A stretch of 64,000 nt of DNA from Dehalococcoidia bacterium (GTDB taxonomy: Bacteria > Chloroflexota > Dehalococcoidia > GIF9 > AB-539-J10), in NCBI GenBank assembly GCA_049671165.1, contig JBATUN010000012.1, forward strand, positions 23,102 to 87,101, given 5' to 3'. This document shows, in pieces, positions 2,272-59,869 of the stretch (the first letter of the stretch is position 1; each line of letters opens with the position of its first letter). Both the position numbers and the translations under genes were made by a program. The notes beneath the pieces are model-generated. The model did not search any database. It saw only the letters and a list, made by a program, of their open reading frames with translations, and was not told the origin of the DNA.

Positions 2272-2288
2272 AGAGTCACTTCCCCATT

Positions 2289-2325
2289 TGTCATTGCGAG
2301 GCTGGCAAAGCCACCCGAAGCAATC
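2289..2325 (+). repeat. Small structured repeat copy 3 (intergenic, after hypF)
   Basis: tgtcattgcgaggctggcaaagccacccgaagcaatc. Confidence 0.8.
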
Positions 2326-2366
2326 CCTTTGTGAAAAAAGAATCGACTCTGCTTTACTTCCCCACC

Positions 2367-2404
2367 TGTCATTGCGAGTCCCGATCCATCGGGACGTGGC
2401 AATC
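2367..2404 (+). repeat. Small structured repeat copy 4 (intergenic), with inner hairpin tcccgat/atcggga
   Basis: tgtcattgcgagtcccgatccatcgggacgtggcaatc. Confidence 0.8.
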
Positions 2405-2429
2405 TCATTGGGGAAAGATTTGCCCCTTT

Positions 2430-3704
2430 TTACGGCTGCCAGCTCAGGAAAGGGTAGGTCTGCTCATCAACGATATTCCAGATGTAGGAACGGTTGCGCG
2501 CGTCAGCATTAGCGACTGCGATTATGTTCCACCCTGCCCCTGAGAACGTGGCGATGTCCTTCATTCCGGTGGTGGTCTGGCCGATCCCGCCAGCCGAAGT
2601 AGCTTGTCCGCTAGGTTCGATATCCCAGAAGGAGTCGCTCACAGTGCCCTTGTTGTATCCCACCAGACCACCAACCTGCGAGGAGCCAGTCACACTGCCG
2701 ATGGAATAGGAGTGGGTCACGCTACCATAATAATTCACTCCCACCAGACCACCAATACGCGAACCACCGGTCACGCTGCCTATGGAATAGGAGTTGCTCA
2801 TACTCCCCTTGTAGTACCAATTATCCCCCACGAGACCGCCGACAGACCAGTTGCCAGTCACGCTGCAGCTGGAGTAGGAGTTGCTCAGAGTAGCCTGATT
2901 CCATCCCACCAGACCGCCAACACGTGAATCACCAGTCACGCTGCCGGCGGAATGCGAATTATTCATAATGCCCCCATTGTGCCCCACGAGACCGCCGGCA
3001 TGCTCTTCTCCACTGACGCTGCCTGTGGAATAGGAGTTGCTCATGGTGCCTTCACTATGTCCTACCAGACTGCCAACGTAATCATTGCCAATCACAGTAA
3101 CGTTCACCATGCCGATATCTTTGATGACCCCTTCCTGCCCGATCTCACCAAAAAGCCCTACATGGTCTTCGTCAGGGCGATTGATAAACAAGTCCTCTAG
3201 CGCATATCCCTGACCCTCGAAACTCCCAACAAACTGGTCATCAGAAGTTCCAACCGGCTGCCACCCCTGTCCCTGATTGGCTGTCTCACTCGCTAGTTCC
3301 ATATAACCGGCAGTACTAGAATCGAGGTCGTTCATGAGGATGTACCTGGCGCCCAAGTTGTTCCTGATATCATGCAAATCATACCAGTCTCGTATTTCCC
3401 ATATTTCTGGGGCAAAGTTAGCGAGGATAGAATAGCGGCCGTTCATGATGACGGTAGTTGTGGCGGCATTGACGTTGGCAATGGCGCCCACTTCGCCAGT
3501 CCAACTGGCAAAGTGGGCGCCATCCTCAGGCTCGGCCGCCAGGTTGACTACCGTCCCCTTGCCGTAGGTGAAGGTCGCCTCGCCGGGTGTGGTTACCTGA
3601 CCGCCTTCGGTGCTGGAGACAGTGAGGTCATACTGGACAAAGATGCAGCCTACCATGGCGCCTATTAAGGCTAGCGCAATTAGAAAGATGCCAACTTTTG
3701 CCAC
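2430..3704 (-). CDS. Surface/secreted protein with tandem GLUG-type repeats (GGLVG)
   Basis: N-terminal TM/signal segment (MAKVGIFLIALALIGAMVGC). At least 9 repeats of SNSYS.GSV.G...GGLVG, typical of the GLUG motif domain. Confidence 0.6.
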   Translation of the reverse strand: MAKVGIFLIALALIGAMVGCIFVQYDLTVSSTEGGQVTTPGEATFTYGKGTVVNLAAEPEDGAHFASWTGEVGAIANVNAATTTVIMNGRYSILANFAPEIWEIRDWYDLHDIRNNLGARYILMNDLDSSTAGYMELASETANQGQGWQPVGTSDDQFVGSFEGQGYALEDLFINRPDEDHVGLFGEIGQEGVIKDIGMVNVTVIGNDYVGSLVGHSEGTMSNSYSTGSVSGEEHAGGLVGHNGGIMNNSHSAGSVTGDSRVGGLVGWNQATLSNSYSSCSVTGNWSVGGLVGDNWYYKGSMSNSYSIGSVTGGSRIGGLVGVNYYGSVTHSYSIGSVTGSSQVGGLVGYNKGTVSDSFWDIEPSGQATSAGGIGQTTTGMKDIATFSGAGWNIIAVANADARNRSYIWNIVDEQTYPFLSWQP

Positions 3705-3821
3705 GTAACAGTTCAGCTTTCTCAGAATCCCCAGGTTATACTATATTGTATATCACCCCGCCGCACAGTCAACGGGTCGCTTTGGCGTGTGCGCCACCTG
3801 GGAGATCAGCCCATGATGAGT

Positions 3822-4361
3822 CTACTTGCCTTGTCGTAGGAAGAGGAACATGAGCAGGGCAGCGATGCTTTTGGCATCGCAGATTTCGCCCGAGGCAATA
3901 AGACGGGGTATCTCATCGGGGGAACCGCGGACCAGCTCGATATCATCAGTATCCTCAGCTACGAGACGAGCGGGCACAAGGTCAGTAGCCATAAAACAAT
4001 GGAGGTACTCCGTGCCATAGCCCGGAGTGGCGTAAAAGCCACCCAATTTGTCTATCTTCCGGGGGAAATAGCCAATCTCCTCCTGTAATTCGCGGCGCAC
4101 AGAGTCGACGGGCTCTTCGCCGGGATCAATGCCACCAGCCGGTATTTCCAGAAGAAACCTGTCCACGGCGTGGCGGAACTGGCGGACCATAAGGATATTA
4201 CCTTGTTCATCAAGGGCCACCACCGCTATGCAATCGCTGTGCTCCACTACCTCTCTAGTGGTTTTTGTGCCGTCAGCTTTCTCCACGGTGTCCACACGTA
4301 TGTTTACTGCACGCCCGTGATAAATCTGTTGGGTAGCTAGCTTCTTTTCCGGCTTCACCAC
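3822..4361 (-). CDS. NUDIX hydrolase (ADP-ribose pyrophosphatase-like)
   Basis: Nudix box GGIDPGEEPVDSVRRELQEEIGY. Confidence 0.8.
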   Translation of the reverse strand: MVKPEKKLATQQIYHGRAVNIRVDTVEKADGTKTTREVVEHSDCIAVVALDEQGNILMVRQFRHAVDRFLLEIPAGGIDPGEEPVDSVRRELQEEIGYFPRKIDKLGGFYATPGYGTEYLHCFMATDLVPARLVAEDTDDIELVRGSPDEIPRLIASGEICDAKSIAALLMFLFLRQGK

Positions 4362-4576
4362 ACTCTTGCTACTCAGCCAAAATGACGTTGCTTTGCGTGT
4401 AGGGGCGAGGCTTGTCCTCGCCGGAACGGTCTAACGGGGAGGGTACAAGACCCTCCCCTACGATTTGATTCTTCGATCTCCCCGTTAAGATAAGGGGGAT
4501 AAAGGGGGTTATGAATGTTTCTCAGCCTCCCCAGAATGATATTGCTGAACGCCTTCGACATAATGTTCTCATAGCC

Positions 4577-5041
4577 TCAAAGGTGGCGAATAAGAGCCAC
4601 CTCATCGCAATCGGGGAACTTGGGACAGCGATAGCATTCCGCCCAGACCTTCTGGGGTAGCTCTTTTTTGTCGATTAGTTGGAAGCCGTGTTTTTCAAAG
4701 AAAGCCGGCTTGCGAACGAGGCAAAAAACCCTGGGTATCCCTAGCTCCTTCGCGTCGCTGAGACAGGCCTGGATCAGCAAGGAGCCAATCCTCTGGTTCT
4801 GTTCCTGTTCATCTACAGCCAGAGACCTGATTTCTGCTAAATCAACCCAGGTAACCTGTAACGCTGCGCAAGCGATAACCCGACCTGCTTTCCTGACCAC
4901 GAAGTAATCTCTAATGCCATCATATATCTCAGATAAGGCGCGAGGCAACATCTCGCCTTTATCAGCAAAATGACTTATCAACCGGTGCATGGAGTTAGCA
5001 TCGCCCACCCTTGCCCTATCAACCTTCATATCAGCTTCCAT
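4577..5041 (-). CDS. GNAT family N-acetyltransferase (amino-acid acetyltransferase-like)
   Basis: GNAT acetyl-CoA binding motif region RIGSLLIQACLSDAKELGIPRVFCLV. Overlaps the nadK stop by 11 nt. Confidence 0.7.
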   Translation of the reverse strand: MEADMKVDRARVGDANSMHRLISHFADKGEMLPRALSEIYDGIRDYFVVRKAGRVIACAALQVTWVDLAEIRSLAVDEQEQNQRIGSLLIQACLSDAKELGIPRVFCLVRKPAFFEKHGFQLIDKKELPQKVWAECYRCPKFPDCDEVALIRHL

Positions 5042-5852
5042 TTCTTCCTCCTCCCAGTTTTTGCCACAGCGAATTATAGAAATAGGTTGGCTCGTGAATT
5101 CTTAAGAAGCGAGCTGTGTGAGGGCTGAGCTTCACTCTGACAGTTTGCCCGTCTGATAACGGTAATTCAACTTGTCCGTCAATGCTAAGTATGACCTTCT
5201 CTCTGGGGGCAACCTTCAAGTCAACTATGCTCTGTGAAGACACTACCAGGGCATGACTCAATCCGAGGTGGCAGGATATTGGTTGGAGGACAATTTCCTT
5301 GGATTGAGGATGAAGAATCGGTCCGCCAGATGCCAGAGAATAGCTGGTGCTCCCGGTAGCAGTGGCGACAATTACGCCATCAGCCCGGTAAGTGGTTAGC
5401 GCCGTGCCATCAATCTCGGCTTCTATGTTAACCAGGCGAACCGCCACGCTGTGTATCACCACATCATTCAAGGCATGAAAGCTTTTGTCTGCAACTTGAG
5501 CCTCGAGCATGGCCCTTTCCTCAATCCAGCCTTTCCCATCGAGCAAACCGGGCAAATAAGACAGGACCTCGTCGCCGTCTATCTCCGTGATAAATCCCAG
5601 CCTACCCAGGTTTATGCCTAAAATGGGCACTGACAAGGGGGCTACGATTCGAGCAACACGGAGGATAGTGCCATCTCCGCCAATACTGAGAATCAGCTCC
5701 GTCCCCACGACTTGGGATCTAGCTTTATCCTCGTCCCTGGTTGAGCACCGCCATGAAGAGACTCCCTGAGAGGATAGAAACTTCTGCAGCTTCTCGCTTA
5801 AGTCTCGGGCTTTCTCACGTAGAGGGTGATACAGAATGCCAATATGCTTCAC
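5031..5852 (-). CDS. nadK: NAD(+) kinase
   Basis: GGDGTIL motif (SIGGDGTILRVARI) and NAD kinase-like length and architecture. Confidence 0.85.
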   Translation of the reverse strand: MKHIGILYHPLREKARDLSEKLQKFLSSQGVSSWRCSTRDEDKARSQVVGTELILSIGGDGTILRVARIVAPLSVPILGINLGRLGFITEIDGDEVLSYLPGLLDGKGWIEERAMLEAQVADKSFHALNDVVIHSVAVRLVNIEAEIDGTALTTYRADGVIVATATGSTSYSLASGGPILHPQSKEIVLQPISCHLGLSHALVVSSQSIVDLKVAPREKVILSIDGQVELPLSDGQTVRVKLSPHTARFLRIHEPTYFYNSLWQKLGGGRNGS

Positions 5853-19414: not shown

Positions 19415-20860
19415 TTAGCGAGGCTTCGTCCCTTTAATTAACTCGGGATGGAGGATGCCAATGAAGGGTAAGTTGCGGTATTCTCCCTTGTAATCTAATC
19501 CATAACCCACTACGAACTCATCGGGAACCTCAAAGCCTACATAATCAAGAGGAACATTTATCAATCGGCGTGCTCTTTTATCAAGCAAGGTACAAACGCG
19601 AAGACTGGCAGGATTGTGGGCAGAAAGATGATTGAGGATGTAATTGAGGGTCATGCCAGTATCTACAATATCTTCAACCATCAGTACGTGTTGTCCCGTT
19701 ATGCTGCTATCTAGGTCTCTGGTTATCTTGACCACCTGACCGTCACCACCGTAGTATGAGATAGCCATAAAGTCCAGGGTAACCGGAAGAGAAAGGTGCT
19801 GCATAAGGTCAGCCATGAAGCAGACAACGCCCTTCAAGATGCCTACTAGCACTAACCGCTGACCAGCATAATCACGCGAAATATGTCTGGCCAGAGTTCT
19901 TACCCTTCGTTGAATTTTGGCGTGGCTATACAAAACTCGGTCGACTCCTTCTACTTTAGCCTCGCCGAGAGGGCCATAACCATATTTGGCTAACAGCTTG
20001 AGGAAATCATTTTTGTTCAGAAGCCTGATATTGACTTCAGGATAAAGCGCTCTAAGCTGGCGCAGCTTGCGGTTCTTCTCTGTCAGCAGATTTTGTTTTA
20101 ATGTGGTCAGTTCAACATAAAGGTCCAGCTCTGGTAAATAAAAATCGGGAGTGAACATCTCTGCTATTTTGTTGCCTTCCCACCTAAGAGGAAAGGAACG
20201 AGGCTCATAAAGCCATTCAATACAGTAGAAGTCAAGAAGTTTGGCAAAATCCTCCTCGCTGGGATGAGCGAAACTAGTTGGCCTCAACGTCGTAGCGGGT
20301 AATGAAGATACTCGAGACGATTTTCTTCGTTTCTCACTTGCCTTATAGTTTTGCTCTAGCAATTGATTAAGCTCTGCTCTCTCAAAGATGACGGCGCACA
20401 TATCGGCAACACTGAGGAGGAAGCTTTTATCAGCTTCGGAGAATTGGCGAGGCTCACGGGTGTAAATTCGAATCTCCCCGATAGCTTCTCCTTTCCCAAG
20501 TACAGGAACCCCGAGTATAGAAGATATTCCTTGCGCTAGTGCTATTTGGGGATATTGAATTCTTTCATCTTCAGCAGCATCGGCAATAAATACCACTTTC
20601 CCCTCAAGGATATCCGGAAGGCTTTTACGGGCATCAAGTGGCCCCTTTTTCAGATAAAGGTCGCTCAAACCATACGCGCCTACAGTGATCAAATATTCCT
20701 TTTGGGAATTGAGGGATAGGATGCGGCAGCCATTTGCCTGCATTGCCTTGGCAGTGCTTTTAGCTATAGAATTACAAATCTTCCTTAAGCCAAAAGCCGA
20801 ATTAGCAACTTTGGTTATCCGCTTAAGAGCTGAATAATAACTACCTCTGGACCTACCCAC
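19415..20860 (-). CDS. hpt: Three-module protein: GAF sensor + PD-(D/E)xK-like segment + hypoxanthine phosphoribosyltransferase
   Basis: C-terminal ~180 aa is canonical HPRT (VLMVEDIVDTGMTL PRTase loop, GFEVPDEFVVGYGLDY). N-terminal ~170 aa is GAF-like. Middle segment FTPDFYLPELDLYVELTTLK resembles a D...E.K nuclease core. One continuous ORF with no internal stop. Confidence 0.7.
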   Translation of the reverse strand: MGRSRGSYYSALKRITKVANSAFGLRKICNSIAKSTAKAMQANGCRILSLNSQKEYLITVGAYGLSDLYLKKGPLDARKSLPDILEGKVVFIADAAEDERIQYPQIALAQGISSILGVPVLGKGEAIGEIRIYTREPRQFSEADKSFLLSVADMCAVIFERAELNQLLEQNYKASEKRRKSSRVSSLPATTLRPTSFAHPSEEDFAKLLDFYCIEWLYEPRSFPLRWEGNKIAEMFTPDFYLPELDLYVELTTLKQNLLTEKNRKLRQLRALYPEVNIRLLNKNDFLKLLAKYGYGPLGEAKVEGVDRVLYSHAKIQRRVRTLARHISRDYAGQRLVLVGILKGVVCFMADLMQHLSLPVTLDFMAISYYGGDGQVVKITRDLDSSITGQHVLMVEDIVDTGMTLNYILNHLSAHNPASLRVCTLLDKRARRLINVPLDYVGFEVPDEFVVGYGLDYKGEYRNLPFIGILHPELIKGTKPR

Positions 20861-20872
20861 TTTTCTCGCACT

Positions 20873-52098: not shown

Positions 52099-52172
52099 GT
52101 GAGCCGTGCGAGACTCGAACTCGCGACACCCTGATTAAAAGTCAGGTGCTCTACCAGCTGAGCTAACGGCCC
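52099..52172 (-). tRNA. tRNA-Lys (anticodon UUU)
   Basis: Minus-strand sequence GGGCCGTTAGCTCAGCTGGTAGAGCACCTGACTTTTAATCAGG...TTCGAGTCTCGCACGGCTCA folds as a cloverleaf with anticodon loop CUUUUAA. Confidence 0.85.
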
Positions 52173-52196: not shown

Positions 52197-52472
52197 CTAT
52201 TTTTCCACTGACAAGAGATTAGAAATATGGATGGCGAAAGCCGGGTGAATGTCGCAAATAAACCCTCCGTCCACTGCCTCCACAGAGAAGGTCACCCTGT
52301 TGGGCTTCCTGAGGGGATCGCCAAATTTATTAAGCCCCGTTTCATCCCAGGGCATATTGTGGCCTAGTATTTCCAGCAGGCCCTTCACATCCCTCGGGTC
52401 CTCTACTATCACTTCGAAAGGAAGCTGATGTGCTAACCCTTCCAACTGGCTATTATTTAGCTTTATCCTCAT
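52197..52472 (-). CDS. Hypothetical small protein
   Basis: 91-aa ORF between tRNA-Lys and the tRNA-Gly 3' fragment. No recognisable motif. Confidence 0.3.
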   Translation of the reverse strand: MRIKLNNSQLEGLAHQLPFEVIVEDPRDVKGLLEILGHNMPWDETGLNKFGDPLRKPNRVTFSVEAVDGGFICDIHPAFAIHISNLLSVEK

Positions 52473-52511: not shown

Positions 52512-52554
52512 AGCGGGTGATGGGATTCGAACCCACGACGTCTTACTTGGGAAG
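52512..52554 (-). repeat. Displaced 3' portion of a tRNA-Gly(CCC) gene (anticodon loop to acceptor 3' end; att-site remnant)
   Basis: Minus strand reads TTCCCAAGTAAGACGTCGTGGGTTCGAATCCCATCACCCGC. Acceptor CACCCGC complements the orphan 5' half GCGGGTG at 59813-59852, 7.3 kb away. Confidence 0.7.
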
Positions 52555-52627
52555 CTAGTAAGTTACCAAATGGCTATTGACATGGTTACGTACTAGCATT
52601 ATCATCATTCATAGATAAGTTTAGGGA

Positions 52628-53818
52628 TTGTTCTGTGGGTTGTCAAGATTATGTATGGAGGTGAATGTGAAGACTTTAGAAGTGATGGAGAAGGTTTTGA
52701 AAGGTAAGAGGTTGAAGGCTAATACTCAGAGGCATTATCGTGAAGCGTTGGGTTCGTTAGCCCAGTACTCGGAAGATTGGCCTGTTAGTGGTGTGATAAT
52801 CAATGAGTGGTTAGCGTCTTTGGAAGGGTATGCTGATTCGACGATAAAGATGTGGTTTGACTGTGTTAATGCTGCGGGTAAATATGTATTGAAGGCATAT
52901 AAGATAGCTAATCCGTGTGCTGAGGCTGAGAGGCCGAAGGTAAGTAAGAAGAGGCGTAGGTATTTTACTGTTGACGAAATGGTCGCGATTATTAAGGCTT
53001 GTGTGAACGATTTTGAATTGGCGCTGGTGATGACGTTGATAGACTCTGCCTGTCGTATAGGTGAGCTGGTGGACTTAAGAGGTGGTGATGTTGGTGATGG
53101 TTTCATTAATGTGGCTGGTAAGACCGGGCAGAGGCGTTATAGGCTTGACGTGAGACTGTGCGAGAAGTTGAGGGATATGGCTGGTGGTGAGGATAAGCCT
53201 GTATTTAAGAACAGGTTTGGTAGGTTTTACCAGGATGGTGATGGTCTAGGGCATAGAGTTCGATATATAGTGGAACGTGCCGGTATTAAGGGTAAGAAGA
53301 TCGGTGTACATACGATAAGGCACAGTAGTGCTTCTTTGGTGGCAAGTGTGGGTATGAAGCCATTAGTGGTGAAGGCTCTGCTTCAGCATGACGATGTGAA
53401 TACGAGTATGGTGTATATCCATGATGTTGAAGATTTGATAATTGGTACTGATGAGTATAGCCCTCTCAAGCTAGTGGAGAAGCGGTATAAAGAAGCTCAT
53501 AGTGGTGAGGTTGAAGGTGAGCAGTTGCGGTTGAGTGATGGTCAGTTTGGTGATGAGTCTGTGGCATTAGTGCCTGTTAGTGGTGAGGTGGTAGATGCTG
53601 GTGGAGTAGATGTGCTGGTTAGTGATATGTTCCCTGAAATACCAGATGGTATTGTGGTCAGGACGTTGTTGAAGTACGAGGAGTTGATGCTAGTACGTAA
53701 GATCTTCATGTGGTACGCTAGCTATAATCCCGGTAATAGTGATGCGGCTAGGGTACGTGAGCTTATGAAGCGTATGCTTCGTAAGGGTGGCAGTGAATTT
53801 TATGCGAAGAGACAATAA
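52628..53818 (+). CDS. int: Tyrosine-type site-specific recombinase (phage integrase family)
   Basis: N-terminal SAM-like core-binding region. C-terminal catalytic residues in HTIRHSSASL...SMVYIH (HxxR...Y). Probable start 52655-52667 (SD GGAGG at 52657-61). Confidence 0.85.
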   Translation: MFCGLSRLCMEVNVKTLEVMEKVLKGKRLKANTQRHYREALGSLAQYSEDWPVSGVIINEWLASLEGYADSTIKMWFDCVNAAGKYVLKAYKIANPCAEAERPKVSKKRRRYFTVDEMVAIIKACVNDFELALVMTLIDSACRIGELVDLRGGDVGDGFINVAGKTGQRRYRLDVRLCEKLRDMAGGEDKPVFKNRFGRFYQDGDGLGHRVRYIVERAGIKGKKIGVHTIRHSSASLVASVGMKPLVVKALLQHDDVNTSMVYIHDVEDLIIGTDEYSPLKLVEKRYKEAHSGEVEGEQLRLSDGQFGDESVALVPVSGEVVDAGGVDVLVSDMFPEIPDGIVVRTLLKYEELMLVRKIFMWYASYNPGNSDAARVRELMKRMLRKGGSEFYAKRQ

Positions 53819-53935
53819 AAGGAGATGGAGGATGTAGTCGTGTGGATAATGTGGCTTTGTGATACAATTGCATAGGTTCAAATTTGAGCAATGTGGAGAC
53901 GTAGCTCAAGTAGTTGAGGTTATAAGGGAGTTGAA

Positions 53936-54295
53936 ATGAAAAAGGCAGGAACAATCGTTGGTGTTATAGCGGTTATCATCATTATTGTTGTAGTTCTAAC
54001 CTGTGATGGGATTGTCCCTAGGGATTCTACATTCGACATAAAGATATCTGGAACAGGGGGGCTTGAGTTTTCAGGCAGCTATATGGTAACGACATCAAAT
54101 GGGCAAGTAGTATCTAAATCAGTAGATGGGATGATTCCAGAGCAATATTCAGTGTCTGGAACACTAGTTTCAGTCATGTTCCAGAAACAAACCGAAGAAG
54201 GTACTCTTAGAGTTGAAATAGTTAAGGGAAATGAGGTTATTGCGAGTGAAGAGACAACTGCGGAGTATGGTATTGTTTCTGTAGCCACAGATTAA
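53936..54295 (+). CDS. Small membrane-anchored protein (hypothetical, island cargo)
   Basis: N-terminal TM IVGVIAVIIIIVVVL, then a beta-rich soluble part. SD-like GGGAG upstream. Confidence 0.4.
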   Translation: MKKAGTIVGVIAVIIIIVVVLTCDGIVPRDSTFDIKISGTGGLEFSGSYMVTTSNGQVVSKSVDGMIPEQYSVSGTLVSVMFQKQTEEGTLRVEIVKGNEVIASEETTAEYGIVSVATD

Positions 54296-54579
54296 AGAGA
54301 GGGTGATACTCGTACTAGGTCTTAGCCTTCATGGATGGGGTTTGGGTGGTCGGAGATTCAAAGACTCGAATGTCAGATAGAATTATGATGAAACTACGAT
54401 AGAGCGTATAAGGGGGATTAGACCTCGTTCTTACCTAGACCGTAGTTATTGACTTGTATTTCTGCAATGAGGACGCTAGGGCGTGCAGCGTTCTTCTATC
54501 GATAGTTCAGTTTTTATGTCTATCCTATATGTTATACTAAGATAAGCGTGAATCGTAAATTCAATTTTGGAGGTGCAGT

Positions 54580-54747
54580 ATGCCAGTACCAGCTGAAGTA
54601 CAAGCGGCTATAGTAACAGTGTCGGGGGAGTGGGCGAGATATCTTGTGACTGTGAGGGAAGAAGACCGGGAAGAGGTTCTCATAAAACTGTTGAAGTATT
54701 ACAAGGATGCTTACGAAGACCTTAAGAAGTTACAAAGTAAGTTCTAA
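54580..54747 (+). CDS. Hypothetical 55-aa protein (island cargo; not in the ORF track, <60 aa)
   Basis: ATG preceded by GGAGGTG. Sequence MPVPAEVQAAIVTVSGEWARYLVTVREEDREEVLIKLLKYYKDAYEDLKKLQSKF. Confidence 0.3.
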   Translation: MPVPAEVQAAIVTVSGEWARYLVTVREEDREEVLIKLLKYYKDAYEDLKKLQSKF

Positions 54748-55051
54748 CTGTAACGTTAAACAGGTGTAATAGTAGGTGTAATTGTTTGTTGGGAACGCTG
54801 TGCGTTCGCACTAGTAGGTAAGATACCCTGTTCTTAGTAGAAGGAGGGCGTTTATGCGCCGAGTGGTTCGTGGGGACGGAAGTGAACGTGGGACAAAAAG
54901 GAGGTGAAGATAGTAGGTGGTGATTGGGTCAAGGATTTAAGACTGAACGAAGTATCAGCGTGGGTTGACTACGTAGGATAATAGTTATAATGAGAATAAG
55001 GGGGTGTCGCTCCCTTATCAGAAGTTAAACAGAAAGGGAGGTAAGATATTA

Positions 55052-55456
55052 ATGGCAGGAAACGAGACAAGGGAACCAACACTAGGTGAAATTATAGAAG
55101 AGATTAAGAAGTCCAAGGATGAGATTATGAAAGAGATTGAAGGTTCTAGAATATCAAGGGAACCAACCCTAGGTGAGATTATGGAAGAGATTAAGGGGTC
55201 CAAAGATGAAGCTGTAAAAAGTAGCGAGGGTTCTAGAATAGCAATGTGGCTCACGCCTGCTGCATTTGGCGGTGCAATAGCATTATTTGGGGTTACACGT
55301 TTAGCAGGAGTGTCACTTAGCGATTGGGTCGTTTGGTGGCCAGATGCGCTGGTCGCAGCTGTGGGGCTTGGATTTATGATTTGGAGTGGGAGTATGGCAG
55401 CTAGGGCACAAGAACGATTTAGAGGCAGATGGAATGAGCCACCACCCAGATTTTAA
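55052..55456 (+). CDS. Two-TM membrane protein with duplicated N-terminal REPTLGEI(I/M)EEIK.SKDE repeat (hypothetical)
   Basis: Start at MAGNETREP after SD GGGAGG. Two hydrophobic helices, AAFGGAIALFGV and ALVAAVGLGFMIWSG. Confidence 0.45.
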   Translation: MAGNETREPTLGEIIEEIKKSKDEIMKEIEGSRISREPTLGEIMEEIKGSKDEAVKSSEGSRIAMWLTPAAFGGAIALFGVTRLAGVSLSDWVVWWPDALVAAVGLGFMIWSGSMAARAQERFRGRWNEPPPRF

Positions 55457-55511
55457 TGCAAGTTATAGACTGTTGACTGATGGCACCTAGATTGGTGCGG
55501 ATTATAACAGT

Positions 55512-55551
55512 GGGGTAAAGGGTGGCAATAGCTGATTTACCCCGTTCTTGT
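55512..55551 (+). terminator. Candidate intrinsic terminator hairpin
   Basis: GGGGTAAAgggtggcaatagctgaTTTACCCC (8-bp stem) followed by a T-rich gttcttgtc. Confidence 0.3.
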
Positions 55552-55697
55552 CTAGAACGTGGTCTGCCTGCTGAGTTTAAGAGCACACATGGGTTGGCTA
55601 GTAAGATGGCGAATAAGAATATGCAAGGTGTTGACGATTGTGAGGCAAGGACTGTAAACTTGGCATGAGTGTGTGAAGTAACGGTAGACAGGAGACT

Positions 55698-56486
55698 ATG
55701 GGAACTATAGATATAAGACTTGAGGAGACAACGGTGGAGCAAGAGGGGAAGAAGTATGCTCTTCGTGTATATAGCGAGGCTGCGTTAGAGGGTTTCAATC
55801 CAAAAGTGTTGGGATTGGGGAATATTGGTCAGAGGTCAAGACGAACTGATGTTATTGCTGCAGTATTTGACCTAGCGGGTTTCACAGGTTTTTGTAGTCA
55901 AGTCGACCCTCATTTGATCCTGCCAAGGTTCCTTAAGGAATTTTTAGATTGGCTTTTTGGAGATATCAAATCTGAGTTTGAAGAAAGAAGATTTGGGGAA
56001 AAGGTTCTGTTGTATTCGGATTTGCCGTTTTTTGCGAAATTTACGGGGGACGGCGTAGTGTTCCTATGGGATACAGCGAATATGGACATGCGTAAGGTGT
56101 GCAATGTTCTGGTGATCGCGGAGCATATATGGGATAACTATAGTAAAGCTTTTGCGCCGAAGGCGAAAAGGTATTTATCGCAGGTACCCAAAGCTCTAAA
56201 GTGCGGATTGGCATGCGGTCTGGTGTGTTCAGTAGGTAAGGGGGAAGATTATGTGGGGGCATGTATTAATATTGCGTCAAGATTGCAGAAGCTAAGTAAT
56301 ATGCGGTTTTGTTGTTCGCAAAGAGGAATAAACATTGAAGAAGGAATGCTGAAGAAGACTCAAGAAGCATATGTGACTAAACGTGTGTCAATAAGAGGAA
56401 TTGGAAGTGACGAGCGAGTCATAGTTGGAAAATCGGATTTTGAGAAGCTGTCAAAAAGGGATAAGGCAATCTTTAAGGACGTATAA
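55698..56486 (+). CDS. Standalone class III nucleotidyl (adenylyl/guanylyl-type) cyclase domain protein
   Basis: Three hallmark motifs present: VIAAVFDLAGFTGF (FxDxxGFT, metal Asp), KFTGDGVVFLWD (K..GDG, second Asp), GLACGLVCSVGKGEDYVGACINIASRLQ (G.H.G.V..G......Y...G..VN.ASR). 262 aa with no other domain. Confidence 0.7.
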   Translation: MGTIDIRLEETTVEQEGKKYALRVYSEAALEGFNPKVLGLGNIGQRSRRTDVIAAVFDLAGFTGFCSQVDPHLILPRFLKEFLDWLFGDIKSEFEERRFGEKVLLYSDLPFFAKFTGDGVVFLWDTANMDMRKVCNVLVIAEHIWDNYSKAFAPKAKRYLSQVPKALKCGLACGLVCSVGKGEDYVGACINIASRLQKLSNMRFCCSQRGINIEEGMLKKTQEAYVTKRVSIRGIGSDERVIVGKSDFEKLSKRDKAIFKDV

Positions 56487-56565
56487 GTGGAAACTGGGGG
56501 GGAAAGGTTCTTGTCAATTAAGCCCTATGATAGCGTTAGTTTCGGATTGTTACCAAGAACGAGTG

Positions 56566-56594
56566 TTGACTTGTTGATTGTGTTCGTGTAGAAT
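56566..56594 (+). promoter_or_regulatory. Sigma-70-like promoter (TTGACT-17-TAGAAT)
   Basis: Near-consensus -35 and -10 with 17-nt spacing, upstream of the 56769 gene and Rep. Confidence 0.5.
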
Positions 56595-56723
56595 ATTCGT
56601 GGTTCTTTAAAAGTTGAATCATGGAGTGACTATAGGTAATCGGTGAAAAACATACCGACAGCCTGCCTAGCTTAGCTGGGCCGGTGTCCGTTAGCGTCGG
56701 AGAAATTAGGTCGGGATTCCGTG

Positions 56724-56751
56724 AGGATCGCTATATAGCGGTCCTCTTTTT
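56724..56751 (+). terminator. Perfect 9-bp palindrome + T6 (attenuator/terminator-like) in the leader of the 56769 gene
   Basis: GGATCGCTATATAGCGGTCC followed by TCTTTTTTG, 18 nt before the SD AAGGAGG. Confidence 0.45.
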
Positions 56752-56768
56752 TGTTTAAGGAGGTGAAT

Positions 56769-57101
56769 ATGATGGACAGAGAAGAATTTTTCGTTGATGG
56801 TGTTCCTGAGAGCGGTTATCTTTGGTGTCGTGAGTGTGAGCGTGCTTATAAATATGGGTCATATAAGGAGGAGGTTTATAGATTGCCGGAGCAGTTTCCG
56901 ATTGAGTTGCGTACGGGGTTTTTTTATTTAGGTATTACTCCGTCTGATTTGAAGGATATAGATGGGAGTATACGTCAGATGTGTCCTTACCCTGGGTGTG
57001 ATGGTGACACTGTTTTTGATGCGTTTGAGTGGGAATGGCTGAGGTCATATCATCCTGAATATCCTGATGTTCCTGAGGATGGTGTTGTGTATCGTTTGTG
57101 A
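56769..57101 (+). CDS. Small Cys-rich (zinc-binding?) protein (hypothetical)
   Basis: Start MMDREEF after SD AAGGAGGTG. Motifs CRECERAY and CPYPGCDGD. Confidence 0.4.
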   Translation: MMDREEFFVDGVPESGYLWCRECERAYKYGSYKEEVYRLPEQFPIELRTGFFYLGITPSDLKDIDGSIRQMCPYPGCDGDTVFDAFEWEWLRSYHPEYPDVPEDGVVYRL

Positions 57102-57339
57102 TGGGTGAGGGGAAAAGATTTAAGGTGTTGGTGAGGTTGGGGCATCTTTAGATGGTTGGTGTTGTTGAGGGGACTTGTTGGCGTTCTGGAGTGAATTTGA
57201 GGGGATTGTTGCAAGGCTCAGGCAGAAGGCGGTGGCGGTACGCCACGCCTTGCCTATTTGTTGTTTTGTGGTGTCAGATGGTTGGGCTGGTCCTTTGTAG
57301 GAGTTGTGCGGGTAATAGTGGGAGGTCTTATCTCACTTG

Positions 57340-57465
57340 ACTATAACTACAAACTATCTCTATATAATGACTATACAGTAGATATATAGGAGTAATACTT
57401 AAGGAATAATCTCTATATACTAATAGGTGAAATGTTACTTGATTCGTGGGTTGCGGGTGTCATAG
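57340..57465 (+). promoter_or_regulatory. AT-rich iteron-containing region upstream of Rep (candidate replication origin/promoter)
   Basis: Direct repeats TCTCTATATA (2 copies) and the palindromic-ish CTATACAGTAGATATATAG, in a sharply AT-rich stretch between G/T-rich flanks. Confidence 0.35.
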
Positions 57466-58284
57466 ATGAGGAAACGTAGGGCTGAGTGGCGTGAGTTAAC
57501 GAGTGCTGAGAAGCGAAAGTATGCTATGGCTGTTAGGCGTTTGAATTTGGGGATTTGGGGTTATGCGATAAGTAGTCTAAGGGCTGTTCATCTGACGACG
57601 AGGGAAGGTAATGATAATACGCCGTGGGTGTTCGCCAGGGATTTAAGGAAGCTGGTCAACAGTTTTAGACGTGATGGGTATGATTTAGAGTACAACGGTG
57701 CTTTAGAGTTTTCACCGGAGAAGCATCTATTGCATTGGCATGGGATATTTAGGATAAAGGGCGGGTTCTTCTTGAGGCCTATGATTTCAGGGGAAGATAA
57801 GGCAGCGGTGAGGCGTGAGTTAGGTGACCGCTGGAACAAGTACCATGGTGCTTTTGCGGTGCAGATTACCGAAGTTGCGAGTAAAAGGGACCTGGAGAAG
57901 TATATATTGAAGCACATACTGAAAGAGTACATAGGGGTAGATGAGGATATGCGGAATAAGTTTCTATTCTCGAGAAAGTGGATGCGTGAAGGGTGGAAGA
58001 AGGTTGAGGACCTGGCGAAGTTGTGGGTGTTAGGCGGTCCTGAGTCCGATGGTGGTTTGAGTGCGATGTATATGACGAAAGAGGGATGGGATAAGGTCAA
58101 TGAGATAGTGCAGGCTTGGGCTCAGAAAGAGACAGGTATGTTTCGTGGCGCAGGTGTTAATGGTGGCCTGAGTGGTTATCTGTATATGGAATTAGGTCGT
58201 ATTCGTGAGGCGTTTGGGAGTGGGTTTGAAATTAGGCGTGATGGTGAGGTTTGTCGAAGTAAGTTTGAGTACGTGGATTTTTAG
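57466..58284 (+). CDS. HUH-endonuclease-like rolling-circle replication initiator (Rep) candidate
   Basis: Motif I-like AVHLTT, HUH motif LLHWHGIF, Tyr motif KYILKH (Y..K). Basic N-terminus. Followed by an SSB-like gene and preceded by an AT-rich iteron region. Confidence 0.45.
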   Translation: MRKRRAEWRELTSAEKRKYAMAVRRLNLGIWGYAISSLRAVHLTTREGNDNTPWVFARDLRKLVNSFRRDGYDLEYNGALEFSPEKHLLHWHGIFRIKGGFFLRPMISGEDKAAVRRELGDRWNKYHGAFAVQITEVASKRDLEKYILKHILKEYIGVDEDMRNKFLFSRKWMREGWKKVEDLAKLWVLGGPESDGGLSAMYMTKEGWDKVNEIVQAWAQKETGMFRGAGVNGGLSGYLYMELGRIREAFGSGFEIRRDGEVCRSKFEYVDF

Positions 58285-58287
58285 GAG

Positions 58288-58668
58288 GTGGATATGTTTT
58301 TGACAAGGATTGCTAGTACTGTATCGGGTCGTTCGACTAAGGGAGCCCGGCGAAGCTATGCTCCCGATGGTAAGGTGATTGGTGAGTTCTTTTTGGCTTG
58401 TGGTAATGGAAGTGTGAAGTATCCGACAATGTATGTGAAAGTTTGCGTATGGGAAGATTTAGCGGAGAAGGCGCTGGCTGTTATAGACCGGAAAGGTTTG
58501 AATGTTGAAGCTAGTGGTTTTCTGTTGATTAAGCAGTATGAAGGTGAGTATGGGAAGTCGGTTTTAATTGAATTGAAGGATGTTCGTGAGGTTAAGTTGT
58601 TTAATAGAGATGGTGAGTTAGAGCAAGTGCTTATTGATGGTGAAACCAAGAGAAAGGAGGTGAACTGA
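58288..58668 (+). CDS. OB-fold single-stranded-DNA-binding (SSB)-like protein
   Basis: Pattern ...GEFFLACGNG...YVKVCVWEDLAEKA...GLNVEASGFLLIKQYEGEYGKSV resembles the SSB OB core (W..V.W..LAE...KG..V.V.G.L). 126 aa. Confidence 0.4.
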   Translation: MDMFLTRIASTVSGRSTKGARRSYAPDGKVIGEFFLACGNGSVKYPTMYVKVCVWEDLAEKALAVIDRKGLNVEASGFLLIKQYEGEYGKSVLIELKDVREVKLFNRDGELEQVLIDGETKRKEVN

Positions 58669-58949
58669 TGGAAGAAGCGGTTCCGTTTAGTATTGATTTG
58701 AGTGATGAGGATATAGATGTGGTTGTGAAGGCGTTAGGTAAGCGCTTTAAGTTTGGCAAAGATGGTCCTGTTAAGACTGTAGCTTTGGCTTTAGTAGTGG
58801 CTGAGTTAGAGGTTGCCATGTATAAGACGTTGATGGATAAAGCTGGATGTGTTAATTTAGATGATGTTGTGAATAAGGTGAGGTTTTGGAGTTTGGAGCA
58901 AGGTTCGTCTTTAAGTGAGCGATGGCTGCGTCGTCATGGGATTACGTGA
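58668..58949 (+). CDS. Hypothetical protein (island cargo), start overlaps the SSB-like stop
   Basis: 93-aa ORF, ATGA overlap with the upstream gene. Confidence 0.35.
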   Translation: MEEAVPFSIDLSDEDIDVVVKALGKRFKFGKDGPVKTVALALVVAELEVAMYKTLMDKAGCVNLDDVVNKVRFWSLEQGSSLSERWLRRHGIT

Positions 58950-58967: not shown

Positions 58968-59042
58968 TGGAGCGGGAGACGGGACTCGAACCCGCGACTC
59001 TCTGCTTGGGAAGCAGATGTTCTACTACTGAACTACTCCCGC
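58968..59042 (-). tRNA. tRNA-Gly (anticodon CCC), copy A, CCA-encoded, atypical D-loop (no GG)
   Basis: Minus strand GCGGGAGTAGTTCAGTAGTAGAACATCTGCTTCCCAAGCAGAGAGTCGCGGGTTCGAGTCCCGTCTCCCGCTCCA. D-loop AGTAGTA lacks the conserved G18G19, so it may be impaired. Confidence 0.7.
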
Positions 59043-59295
59043 GTGAGTGCTGTTATGGCTATTGATGGTGAGGTACTGCGGTGAGTATCCTCCCCAATGG
59101 CCATTCAGGTATTGCTTGGATTGCAGGAGGTGGCTAGATAGATTGATACCACTACAGGTAATGGAGTTTGCTGAGTGAACTGGATGGAGAATTATGTCTG
59201 GGGTGCATGATAGGCTTGTAAGAGGCTTAAAAGTGCCTCTGAGGGCATTGCGGGGCAAAGTGACAGGCGGTGGCGATCGCTTGCGACAAGCCACT

Positions 59296-59523
59296 GCAAG
59301 AGAAGAGAAGAAAAGAGAAAGAAGAACAGAAGGAGAAAGAGAAGAAGCAAGAAAAGAAGCAAGAAAAGAAGCAAGAGAAGGAGAGAGAGAAGAAGCGAGA
59401 GAGGAAGCAAGAGAAGAAGCAAGGGAAGAAGGAAGAGAAGAAGATAAGAGAAGAGAAGATAAGAGAAGGGGAAGAAGAGAAGAGAAAGAAGGGAAGAAGC
59501 GAGAGAAAAAGAAAGAGAAGAAG
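59296..59523 (+). repeat. ~230-nt homopurine (A/G, few C, 2 T) low-complexity tract with GAAGCAAGA(A/G)AA-type periodicity
   Basis: Direct reading shows only two T in 228 nt on the + strand. Generates spurious K/E/R-rich ORFs in several frames. Confidence 0.8.
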
Positions 59524-59672
59524 TAACAAGAAGAGAAGAGGGGATACTGGCAATTATTTTTGTATCCCTGTCAAAGAAAGAATTTGAAGGGCAGAAGTAG
59601 GTGCGGAAGTGGTGGAATGGGGGCCGTGGAATGGAGAGTTGGGTGAGGGTTATGATGGCGGGAAGTGAAGTG

Positions 59673-59744
59673 AGCGGGAGACGGGACTCGAACCCGCGAC
59701 CCTCTGCTTGGGAAGCAGATGCTCTACCACTGAGCTACTCCCGC
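59673..59744 (-). tRNA. tRNA-Gly (anticodon CCC), copy B (canonical D-loop, no encoded CCA)
   Basis: Minus strand GCGGGAGTAGCTCAGTGGTAGAGCATCTGCTTCCCAAGCAGAGGGTCGCGGGTTCGAGTCCCGTCTCCCGCT. Confidence 0.85.
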
Positions 59745-59812: not shown

Positions 59813-59852
59813 TATTGCTTGGGAAGCAAGCACTCTACCGCTGAGTTACACC
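59813..59852 (-). repeat. Orphan 5' half of the original tRNA-Gly(CCC) (acceptor GCGGGTG through anticodon loop)
   Basis: Minus strand GCGGGTGTAACTCAGCGGTAGAGTGCTTGCTTCCCAAG, then continues into the conserved ~90-nt unit (CAATACCTGAATGGCTATT...) rather than a T-arm. Confidence 0.7.
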
Positions 59853-59869
59853 CGCAATTAGTTATATTA

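Follow-up and report, generated by a model that had tools for sequence, protein, structure and literature searches.

What might a small mobile element gain by carrying a nucleotidyl cyclase gene, and does the enzyme act alone or with the genes beside it? This question is raised by a 64,000-nt stretch of contig JBATUN010000012.1 from a Dehalococcoidia bacterium (positions 23,102 to 87,101 of the forward strand; hereafter the window). Here, the open reading frame (ORF) of a 262-aa protein lies on an integrated element between genes for a small protein with two transmembrane segments (2-TM protein) and a small Cys-rich protein. The original prediction took the 262-aa protein for a standalone class III nucleotidyl cyclase and the three genes for a candidate signalling or defence module akin to Pycsar. 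The ORFs, the motifs and the co-directional small neighbours on which it was built are all present. We find that the cyclase belongs to a known kind of enzyme, as a new and uncurated member whose mobile setting is unusual. On balance, we favor the reading that a solo, divergent cyclase, predicted to make cyclic AMP (cAMP), is carried as a one-gene cassette in a rolling-circle element integrated at a tRNA-Gly gene and acts on host signalling. The gene at the center of this analysis is the following.

55698–56486, + strand: cyclase ORF, 262 aa; divergent class III nucleotidyl cyclase, predicted adenylyl cyclase

The 262-aa cyclase

The protein carries the motifs FDLAGFTGF (D58), KFTGDG (K114 and D118) and NIASR (N191 and R195). 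We aligned 52 homologues that share 44–77% identity with it, and D58, F62, T63, K114, G117, D118, G119, C169, G170, D184, N191 and R195 were invariant in this alignment; thus, the motifs are not chance matches. R168 was conserved in at least 90% of the aligned homologues. Direct searches with the protein returned no match in Pfam or PADLOC (E ≤ 1 for both), NCBIfam, PHROGs or the PDB sequences. PF00211 does not detect it, and a precomputed Pfam domain was found in none of 120 listed homologues. A profile built from the homologue alignment matched Spirulina CyaC (1wc0, E 1.3e-4) and Pseudomonas CyaB (E 7.7e-3), and the motifs aligned residue for residue. In these profile alignments, D58 and D118 correspond to the two metal-binding Asp residues of CyaB and CyaC, and the invariant transition-state pair N191/R195, four residues apart, corresponds to the NIAARLQ motif of CyaC.

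The AlphaFold2 model of the protein (pLDDT 92.8, pTM 0.86) consists of a cyclase core and an N-terminal extension of ~48 residues, and neither Pfam nor the model indicates a further domain. Foldseek searches of the PDB with this model yielded 98 matches at E ≤ 0.001, of which the best 50 are all class III cyclases. The top match is CyaC (E 1e-8, target-normalised TM-score 0.70), while the Pycsar uridylate cyclase 8jsz ranks 29th, after ordinary adenylyl and guanylyl cyclases. The missing PF00211 match reflects divergence, as the cyclase fold and the catalytic residues are present. Judged from sequence and model, ORF 55698–56486 is a very divergent class III nucleotidyl cyclase that is predicted to be catalytically intact. 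The prediction of a standalone cyclase is thus upheld by the residues invariant in 52 homologues, the profile match to CyaC and the 50 of 50 best structural matches in the PDB.

In fold, the protein resembles CyaC (1wc0/1wc1), CyaB (3r5g) and Rv1625c (4p2f), with Foldseek E-values of about 1e-8 to 1e-7 and target-normalised TM-scores of 0.66–0.73. Like these enzymes, it holds the two metal Asp residues, the Lys/Asp adenine pair, the Asn/Arg transition-state pair and the RxG arginine in a single chain. Unlike them, it is only 12–18% identical in sequence (Foldseek alignments), escapes both PF00211 and NCBIfam, has a longer Asp–Asp spacer (60 residues) and the N-terminal extension, and lacks a sensor or membrane domain. 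The spacings K114-4-D118, D184-7-N191 and N191-4-R195 in our protein are those of canonical adenylyl cyclases, e.g. Rv1625c. The predicted product is most likely 3′,5′-cAMP formed from ATP, because the protein has an adenine-type Lys/Asp pair (K114, and D184 in a DxxGxxxN pattern); this K/D combination is the adenine-recognising pair (Pucsar preprint, 10.64898/2026.08.12.744502). As every chain holds all six catalytic residues, the active form is most likely a head-to-tail homodimer.

Relatives and their gene neighborhoods

A database search returned 180 cyclase homologues, and among the 120 listed, nearly all are ~262 aa long. An identical protein is labeled 'hypothetical protein, Dehalococcoidia bacterium' at NCBI, and about a dozen relatives are named 'class 3 adenylate cyclase' by JGI. 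In a profile search of 1.84 billion representative proteins, we detected 534 relatives at E ≤ 0.001, 150 of them at E ≤ 1e-30; therefore, the family is small and set apart from the bulk of class III cyclases. Relatives occur in 151 of 185,579 species genomes, and a metagenome scan confirmed 348. The labels of their metagenome-assembled genomes include Chloroflexota, Bacteroidota, Acidobacteriota, Lentisphaerota, Verrucomicrobia and Betaproteobacteria, among others. No relative was found in the viral contig, GenBank phage or PLSDB plasmid collections. Cyclase-fold proteins from viruses are rare. At E ≤ 2.2e-3, BFVD gave four matches, of which two belong to giant viruses and the others to an uncultured tailed phage and an algal virus.

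We constructed a neighbour-joining tree of 161 sequences and overlaid the gene neighborhoods, which gave four clades. Loci and proteins are referred to below by our own numbers (L and P).

Clade A: n = 19, includes the 262-aa cyclase; mostly metagenome contigs; no chromosomal partners; linked to a rolling-circle Rep gene in 6 of 19 (weakly in L086)
Clade B: n = 60; many phyla; no constant partner
Clade C: n = 23; Dehalococcoidales; gene for a GAF + HD-GYP protein downstream in 23 of 23, class II phosphodiesterase (PDE)-like gene in 12
Clade D: n = 58; Dehalococcoidia; gene for a coiled-coil, membrane-anchored protein upstream in 33 of the 38 with enough flank, class-II-PDE-like gene in 12

The class-II-PDE-like gene encodes a protein of the metallo-beta-lactamase fold (PF02112 at 2e-7). 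In one clade-D locus (L093), a gene for a cyclic nucleotide monophosphate (cNMP)-binding protein adjoins the cyclase/coiled-coil pair. The proteins encoded upstream of the clade-D cyclases (L001–L011 and L092–L137, e.g. L003 9031–9921) are 230–320 aa long and have a conserved N-terminal motif, ILTKPLPEILDEME, a long Ala/Glu/Lys-rich region resembling a coiled coil and a C-terminal membrane anchor; none matches a Pfam family. A shorter paralogue without the anchor is transcribed divergently in 17 clade-D loci.

The cyclase genes linked to Rep all belong to clade A. One very small setting is L111, where an element of ~3.7 kb (1278–5070) comprises tRNA-Thr(GGT), an integrase gene (272 aa, phrog_216 at 1.3e-8), a Rep gene (200 aa), the cyclase gene, an internal attachment (att)-like site, a gene for an SPFH/Band 7 protein and a 45-nt direct repeat. 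In L090, Rep follows the cyclase gene after 7 nt, and in L085 and L087 the end of Rep lies directly upstream of it. Stretches apparently derived from tRNA were seen in translation near the cyclase genes of two other clade-A loci, L125 and L143.

Defense genes are found beside several clade-A members: Mrr in L086 (mREase_IV 3.6e-90) and L097, GmrSD/HEC-06 in L089 (2e-201), NYN/HEC-09 together with an insertion sequence in L084, and a PADLOC 'cll' match in L087. In L060, a TIR protein is encoded 113 nt downstream of the cyclase. The representative search also retrieved P0252 (405 aa), in which an N-terminal AbiTii domain (PF18864, 57 bits vs a cut-off of 27.6; PADLOC AbiTii 5e-15) precedes an intact cyclase domain. 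In L125 (5680–7323), cyclase residues 1–224 are joined in frame to a P-loop NTPase part of ~320 residues with a Walker A motif (GEQGIGKS), a Walker B motif (IIIDD) and a weak nSTAND3 match (E 0.0037); this could be a genuine fusion or a recombination scar. Separately, ORFs near the cyclase in the clade-A islands L084 (6011–6319), L086 (4589–4768) and L089 (6085–6975) have a common C-terminal sequence (…GREEVVPDILKAAGLAT), while the intervening genes differ. We take this shared ORF, by eye, to resemble methylenetetrahydrofolate reductase. The arrangement suggests a common chromosomal hotspot behind the three islands.

The host element and the cyclase cassette

The cyclase gene is located in a 6.5-kb element spanning 52.51–59.01 kb, which encodes a tyrosine integrase, an HUH-type Rep and a protein with a weak match to single-stranded DNA-binding protein (SSB). 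Apart from the cyclase and its two neighbors, its features are as follows.

52512..52557, − strand: partial tRNA-Gly copy, distal att end; 3′ half through the anticodon loop
52628..53818, + strand: tyrosine integrase, 396 aa (PF00589 7e-13; phrog_1 integrase 3.6e-30)
53936..54295, + strand: 119-aa protein with an N-terminal hydrophobic segment, variable cargo; no family match in Pfam, PADLOC, NCBIfam or PHROGs
54580..54747, + strand: 55-aa ORF; no significant family match
57466..58284, + strand: HUH-type rolling-circle Rep, 272 aa (PF23343 2.8e-5, 24.7 bits vs a cut-off of 27.8)
58288..58668, + strand: weak SSB match, 126 aa (PF00436 8.4e-5, 23.0 bits vs a cut-off of 26; TIGR00621 0.012)
58668..58949, + strand: 93-aa ORF, the last gene of the element; no family match in Pfam, PADLOC, NCBIfam or PHROGs
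58968..59042, − strand: tRNA-Gly(CCC), integration target and proximal att end (ARAGORN; Rfam tRNA 70.4 bits)

When the partial tRNA-Gly copy was aligned with the two tRNA-Gly(CCC) genes at 58968–59042 and 59672–59744, 38 of 46 positions were invariant and the core CTTGGGAAGC was identical. The copy is also 91% identical to the tRNA-Gly of the sister element L171. The integrase is 64–71% identical to those of the sister elements L168 and L171 (71% for L168), both of which end at the same tRNA-Gly. L171 is a complete sister element of ~3.4 kb with an integrase gene, a 135-aa ORF, the Cys-rich gene, Rep and tRNA-Gly, and its att arrangement is alike. The Rep motifs HLTT, HWH and YILKH (the HUH motif and the catalytic Tyr) align across five Reps, and the relatives in L090 (38.1 bits) and L111 (28.6 bits) pass the PF23343 cut-off. 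Every gene from 52628 to 58949 is on the + strand, and the GC skew is +0.32 to +0.46 vs about ±0.1 in the flanks. The region 52.51–59.01 kb is, as read from its sequence, an integrated rolling-circle element, for which excision and replication are predicted from the genes. The integrase, Rep and the tRNA-Gly with its partial copy bear out the earlier assignment of the cyclase gene to an integrated mobile element.

The element resembles small integrative HUH Rep elements in its tyrosine integrase, Rep, weak SSB match and integration at a tRNA with a partial copy at the far end. It also shares with them the uniform direction of its genes and a strong strand skew. Unlike the known HUH elements, its Rep is far from curated families (24.7 bits to PF23343), and its units are as small as 1 kb with a single gene. 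We found no capsid or morphogenesis gene on the element, no relative of Rep among phages or in the PHROG collection, and no circular relative of the element in viral, phage or plasmid collections. PF23343 also covers the inovirus gene II protein; an inovirus-like prophage was considered and rejected, since no morphogenesis ATPase or capsid matched among nine ORFs searched against Pfam, seven of which were also searched against NCBIfam. In Rfam, tRNAs were the sole matches across 52–60 kb. The literature search returned nothing relevant on adenylate cyclases encoded by mobile elements or on rolling-circle elements in Dehalococcoidia.

Around the integration site, the two tRNA-Gly(CCC) genes stand in tandem, with 93% identity across 109 nt, and are followed by a partial third copy at 59816–59855 (83%). 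These extra copies may be the trace of earlier integrations at that tRNA. A purine-rich stretch with a 12-nt period (59294–59535) lies between the first two genes. At the other end, a 91-aa ORF without a family match (52197–52472, − strand) is located between tRNA-Lys (52099–52172) and the partial tRNA-Gly copy; it may be a host gene or part of an earlier element.

Relatives of the element, or of the two small genes, are found at other loci.

L168: integrase (71%), 186-aa ORF, 2-TM gene (71%), two further ORFs, tRNA-Gly; no cyclase
L174: integrase end, 2-TM region at 94% DNA identity; no cyclase
L161–L167: 2-TM homologues in other settings, one in a SocA_Panacea operon; no cyclase
L169 and L170: integrase end, 186-aa ORF, Cys-rich gene (70%), Rep (74–75%); no cyclase
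L171 and L173: Cys-rich gene adjoining Rep; no cyclase

These relatives define the borders of the inserted DNA. Within the element, we distinguished the following sites.

54431..54442, + strand: first internal att-like site, TTACCTAGACCG; mimic of a tRNA-Thr anticodon arm, followed by a TTGAC box (pattern scan)
55548..55559, + strand: left junction, att-like core TTGTCTAGAACG; left arm common to L174 and L168
55560..56561, + strand: cyclase insertion (cassette), 1,002 nt; the cyclase is the only long sense-strand ORF with homologues
55631..55660, + strand: promoter-like site in the cassette, TTGACG-18-TAAACT, 9/12, consensus match only
56550..56561, + strand: right junction, att-like core TTACCAAGAACG; identical to the core of the L111 tRNA-Thr repeats and followed by backbone homologous to L174, L169 and L175

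DNA comparison showed that the backbone homology to L168 and L174 ends at 55557/55563 and restarts at 56564/56566 in L175 and L169, while contigs related through the cyclase alone match 55595–56488 and end at the stop codon. L174 is uninterrupted at this point (…ccccgtta TTGTCTAGAATG aggtattgaca…). In the cyclase-bearing element, the left junction reads …ccccgttc TTGTCTAGAACG tggtctgcctgctgag… and the right junction …cggattg TTACCAAGAACG agtgttgactt…, so that the insertion is flanked by an imperfect 12-nt direct repeat. Because L174 is uninterrupted and an att-like core is located at each junction, we delimit the insertion to 55560–56561.

Past the left core, the sequence turns into the tRNA-Thr-arm type of the L111 repeats. 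Both the core and the adjoining sequence match the 45-nt repeats of L111, which are located in and derived from tRNA-Thr(GGT), and the core corresponds to the reverse complement of the anticodon arm. L168 departs from both L174 and the cyclase-bearing element right after the core; thus, three elements with a common left arm have three different continuations. The att-like core is found on the + strand 28–452 nt 3′ of the cyclase gene in 7 of the 19 clade-A loci, against a background of 0.05 per kb on both strands, and most copies have a right arm with a TTGAC(A) box. The first internal site lies in a non-coding piece (54335–54464) that is 72% identical to the sequence just 3′ of the cyclase gene in L087 and 77% identical over a shorter stretch in L088. 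The region 53812–54927, in which this piece lies, has no counterpart in L174. The 50–100 nt upstream of the cyclase gene, including the promoter-like site, are conserved among cyclase cassettes. The junction pattern points to site-specific recombination and makes the 1-kb unit a candidate mobile cassette.

Internal att-like sites between modules are likewise seen in tandem accretion at tRNA att sites. Unlike in the known tRNA-site elements, the internal sites here mimic tRNA-Thr, whereas the outer element uses tRNA-Gly. Integron cassettes are alike in layout only, with one ORF followed by a short recombination site and the ORF recurring in different arrays beside a tyrosine recombinase gene. 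They differ in that the site of our cassette is a tRNA anticodon-arm mimic instead of attC, and the cassette has its own promoter-like site. No IntI-type integrase or attI was identified, and no search with attC or IntI models was made.

Signalling, conflict or module

How might a solo cyclase serve the element? In the scheme we favor, a 1,002-nt cassette with the cyclase as its sole cargo would have entered the 6.5-kb tRNA-Gly(CCC) rolling-circle element by integrase-mediated recombination at a site mimicking the tRNA-Thr anticodon arm. The cyclase homodimer would then make cAMP from ATP. Neither a receptor nor an effector is encoded by the cassette, so that host proteins encoded elsewhere would have to read any signal; candidate readers are GAF-HD-GYP, cNMP-binding and phosphodiesterase-like proteins, such as those beside the chromosomal relatives in Dehalococcoidia. 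By this route, the element may alter the cyclic-nucleotide signalling of its host. In support, clade-A cyclase genes recur next to Rep in L111, L090, L085 and L087.

Several points weigh against this scheme. The ATP specificity is read from the residue pattern alone, and a hidden Markov model alignment to class IIIb enzymes puts D184 two residues off their Thr position. The att-like core was seen in just the 7 of 19 relatives mentioned above, many contigs being too short to judge, and the cassette, instead of moving by itself, could be what decay has left of a larger L111-like element. No cNMP receptor is evident in the 64-kb window, where our search for a second cyclase and for cNMP-binding, PDE and GAF-HD proteins gave one weak match (19418–20872, E 6.5e-4). 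Finally, the Mrr, GmrSD and NYN neighbors and the AbiTii fusion fit a role in conflict as much as one in signalling.

A conflict role is the main rival, and we regard it as possible but clearly the less probable of the two. The cyclase would then be a solo defense or counter-defense gene that is turned on when an infection occurs or a new host is entered. Its product would trigger an effector whose gene lies elsewhere, deplete ATP, or interfere with the nucleotide-based immunity of the host or its regulation. This would fit the clade-A relatives beside the type IV restriction genes Mrr (L086, L097) and GmrSD/HEC-06 (L089), the NYN/HEC-09 (L084) and 'cll' (L087) neighbors, the AbiTii–cyclase fusion P0252, the L125 fusion to a P-loop NTPase and the TIR gene of L060, as well as the patchy distribution across phyla (151 of 185,579 species genomes). 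However, no clade-A cyclase has a linked effector, proximity is weak evidence as defense genes and mobile elements cluster anyway, no PADLOC model matches the cyclase, the fusions and the TIR neighbor are single cases, and clades C and D resemble ordinary signalling loci. Of the predicted link to defense, the general idea thus retains indirect support from the Mrr, GmrSD and NYN neighbors and the one AbiTii fusion, while its Pycsar-like form does not stand. A bolder version of the cassette scheme can be put forward only tentatively: mini rolling-circle elements of Dehalococcoidia may swap one-gene cassettes at tRNA anticodon-arm mimics, and a solo adenylyl cyclase may be favored among these for host takeover or defense through host receptors, with no linked effector.

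Very little speaks for the alternative in which the three adjacent, co-directional genes form a Pycsar- or Pucsar-like module, the signal of the cyclase being received either by the 2-TM protein, acting as a minimal effector in the membrane, or by the Cys-rich protein. The flanking genes and the leader between cyclase and Cys-rich gene are as follows.

55052..55456, + strand: 2-TM protein, 134 aa, start ATG 55052 in agreement with homologues; gene of the element
56566..56756, + strand: leader of the Cys-rich/Rep genes, with a promoter-like site (56566–56594), a structured stretch and a terminator-like hairpin (56723–56746) followed by a T run
56769..57101, + strand: Cys-rich protein, 110 aa; CxxC…CxxxxC, four invariant Cys

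The 2-TM protein has two hydrophobic segments in its C-terminal half, predicted to be TM helices by reading the sequence. It has 19 homologues, and the Cys-rich protein has 22, two of which are fused to an N-terminal GerE/LuxR-type helix-turn-helix. The start of the Cys-rich gene is more likely ATG 56769, which is preceded by AAGGAGG and fits the homologue lengths, than TTG 56751. PF00027 matches neither protein, and the AlphaFold2 model of the Cys-rich protein (pLDDT 89.4) had no significant Foldseek match in the PDB (best E = 1.0, ribosomal proteins) and shows no cNMP-binding fold. The prediction that neither neighbor has a cNMP-binding domain is therefore confirmed, PADLOC giving no such match either.

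We searched for co-occurrence of the three genes by tblastn. No cyclase was found in nine loci with 2-TM homologues (L161–L168; L174 was compared by blastn only) or in six loci with Cys-rich homologues (L169–L173; L175 was compared by blastn only and, with just 43 nt upstream of the shared backbone, is too short to judge). Conversely, neither the 2-TM nor the Cys-rich gene is present in any of 160 cyclase loci, and all other proteins of the element gave a single distant integrase match there. The Cys-rich gene is next to Rep in L169, L170, L171 and L173, and in L168 and L174 the integrase is accompanied by the 2-TM gene. Both small genes are part of the recipient element, not partners of the cyclase.

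Pycsar and Pucsar are known to include membrane effectors, and the SocA_Panacea operon that contains the 2-TM homologue P0133 hints at toxicity. Yet PycTM and PucTM effectors combine a cNMP-binding domain with three TM helices, whereas the 134-aa 2-TM protein is too small for such an effector and lacks the cNMP-binding domain, as does the Cys-rich model. The three genes are set apart by gaps of 241 and 282 nt, by att-like sites to either side of the cyclase and by promoter-like sites of their own. In L174, to which the 2-TM region is most closely related, the junction contains no cyclase. This reading is largely refuted by the neighborhood data, and the conserved association among homologues, by which the module was to be checked, is absent for the trio (0 of 15 neighbor-gene loci, L175 being too short upstream, and 0 of 160 cyclase loci).

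Pycsar and Pucsar are defined by a cyclase and an effector that joins a cNMP-binding domain with TIR or TM helices. Our locus resembles them in that its class III-type cyclase, ~260 aa long, stands alone on mobile or island DNA and has a small membrane protein encoded beside it. Unlike in those systems, there is no effector with a cNMP-binding domain and the neighbors are not conserved with the cyclase; unlike in PucC, the base pair is of the adenine type (K/D), not a narrow pyrimidine pocket or the E/K guanine pair. PADLOC gave no PycC model match for the cyclase at E ≤ 1. The cyclase is not Pycsar or Pucsar as defined, and the membership first proposed for it fails on these same three counts (PycC model, effector and base pair). 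It would instead act as an ordinary solo adenylyl cyclase that happens to be carried by a mobile cassette.

Further observations concern the small genes. The 2-TM gene has an in-frame 87-nt tandem duplication (55068–55154 and 55155–55241, 79% identical) that gives two copies of REPTLGEIxEEIKxSKDE, 29 aa each; the repeat is duplicated in 4 of 20 family members, and most of the others are ~105 aa long with a single copy. A kinship of REPTLGEIxEEIK with the TKPLPEILDEME motif of the clade-D coiled-coil proteins was rejected, as the hhalign probability was 0.3%. In L165 (5400–6883; also L166 and L167), P0133, 43% identical to the 2-TM protein, ends a three-gene run begun by a SocA_Panacea antitoxin-type protein, a setting which hints that the 2-TM family may be a membrane toxin. 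In the leader of the Cys-rich/Rep genes, the structured stretch is ~130 nt long (fold z-score −3.2), and the hairpin ends just before the ribosome-binding site. This leader is kept in L169, has no Rfam match, and could be an attenuator, a small control RNA or a replication origin.

A neutral passenger, acquired by chance and serving neither element nor host, would suit a mosaic of small pieces with complete sister elements that lack the cyclase gene. We give this hardly any credence, as the ORF is intact with a full set of catalytic residues, members of the subclade adjoin Rep in at least five loci whose DNA, apart from the cyclase, has little or nothing in common, and the 50–100 nt upstream are conserved across contexts. 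Least credible is a non-cyclase palm-domain nucleotidyltransferase (primase/polymerase-like, or making another nucleotide signal) that serves replication of the element: the cyclase fold is related to polymerase palm domains, the gene is next to Rep in at least five loci (our element, L085, L087, L090 and L111) and is one of just four protein genes in L111, but all cyclisation-specific residues including the transition-state Asn/Arg and base-selecting Lys/Asp are invariant, the 50 best structural matches are cyclases and not polymerases, complete sister elements such as L171 would replicate without the gene, and most family members lie on chromosomes, where phosphodiesterase-like and GAF genes adjoin them.

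The family represents an annotation gap, since Pfam, NCBIfam and PADLOC all miss an intact class III cyclase found in 534 representative clusters and 151 species genomes. One of its subclades, without chromosomal signalling partners, is now a single gene on tiny mobile elements and beside defense genes, which offers a simple setting in which to ask how a mobile element benefits from making a cyclic nucleotide in its host. Dehalococcoidia are hard to grow, and their mobile elements are little known. Cassette exchange at tRNA-anticodon-arm mimics, if true, would explain how mosaic mini-elements are assembled, and the weight of the finding would rise if such exchange, or a role of the solo cassette in conflict or host takeover, proves true.

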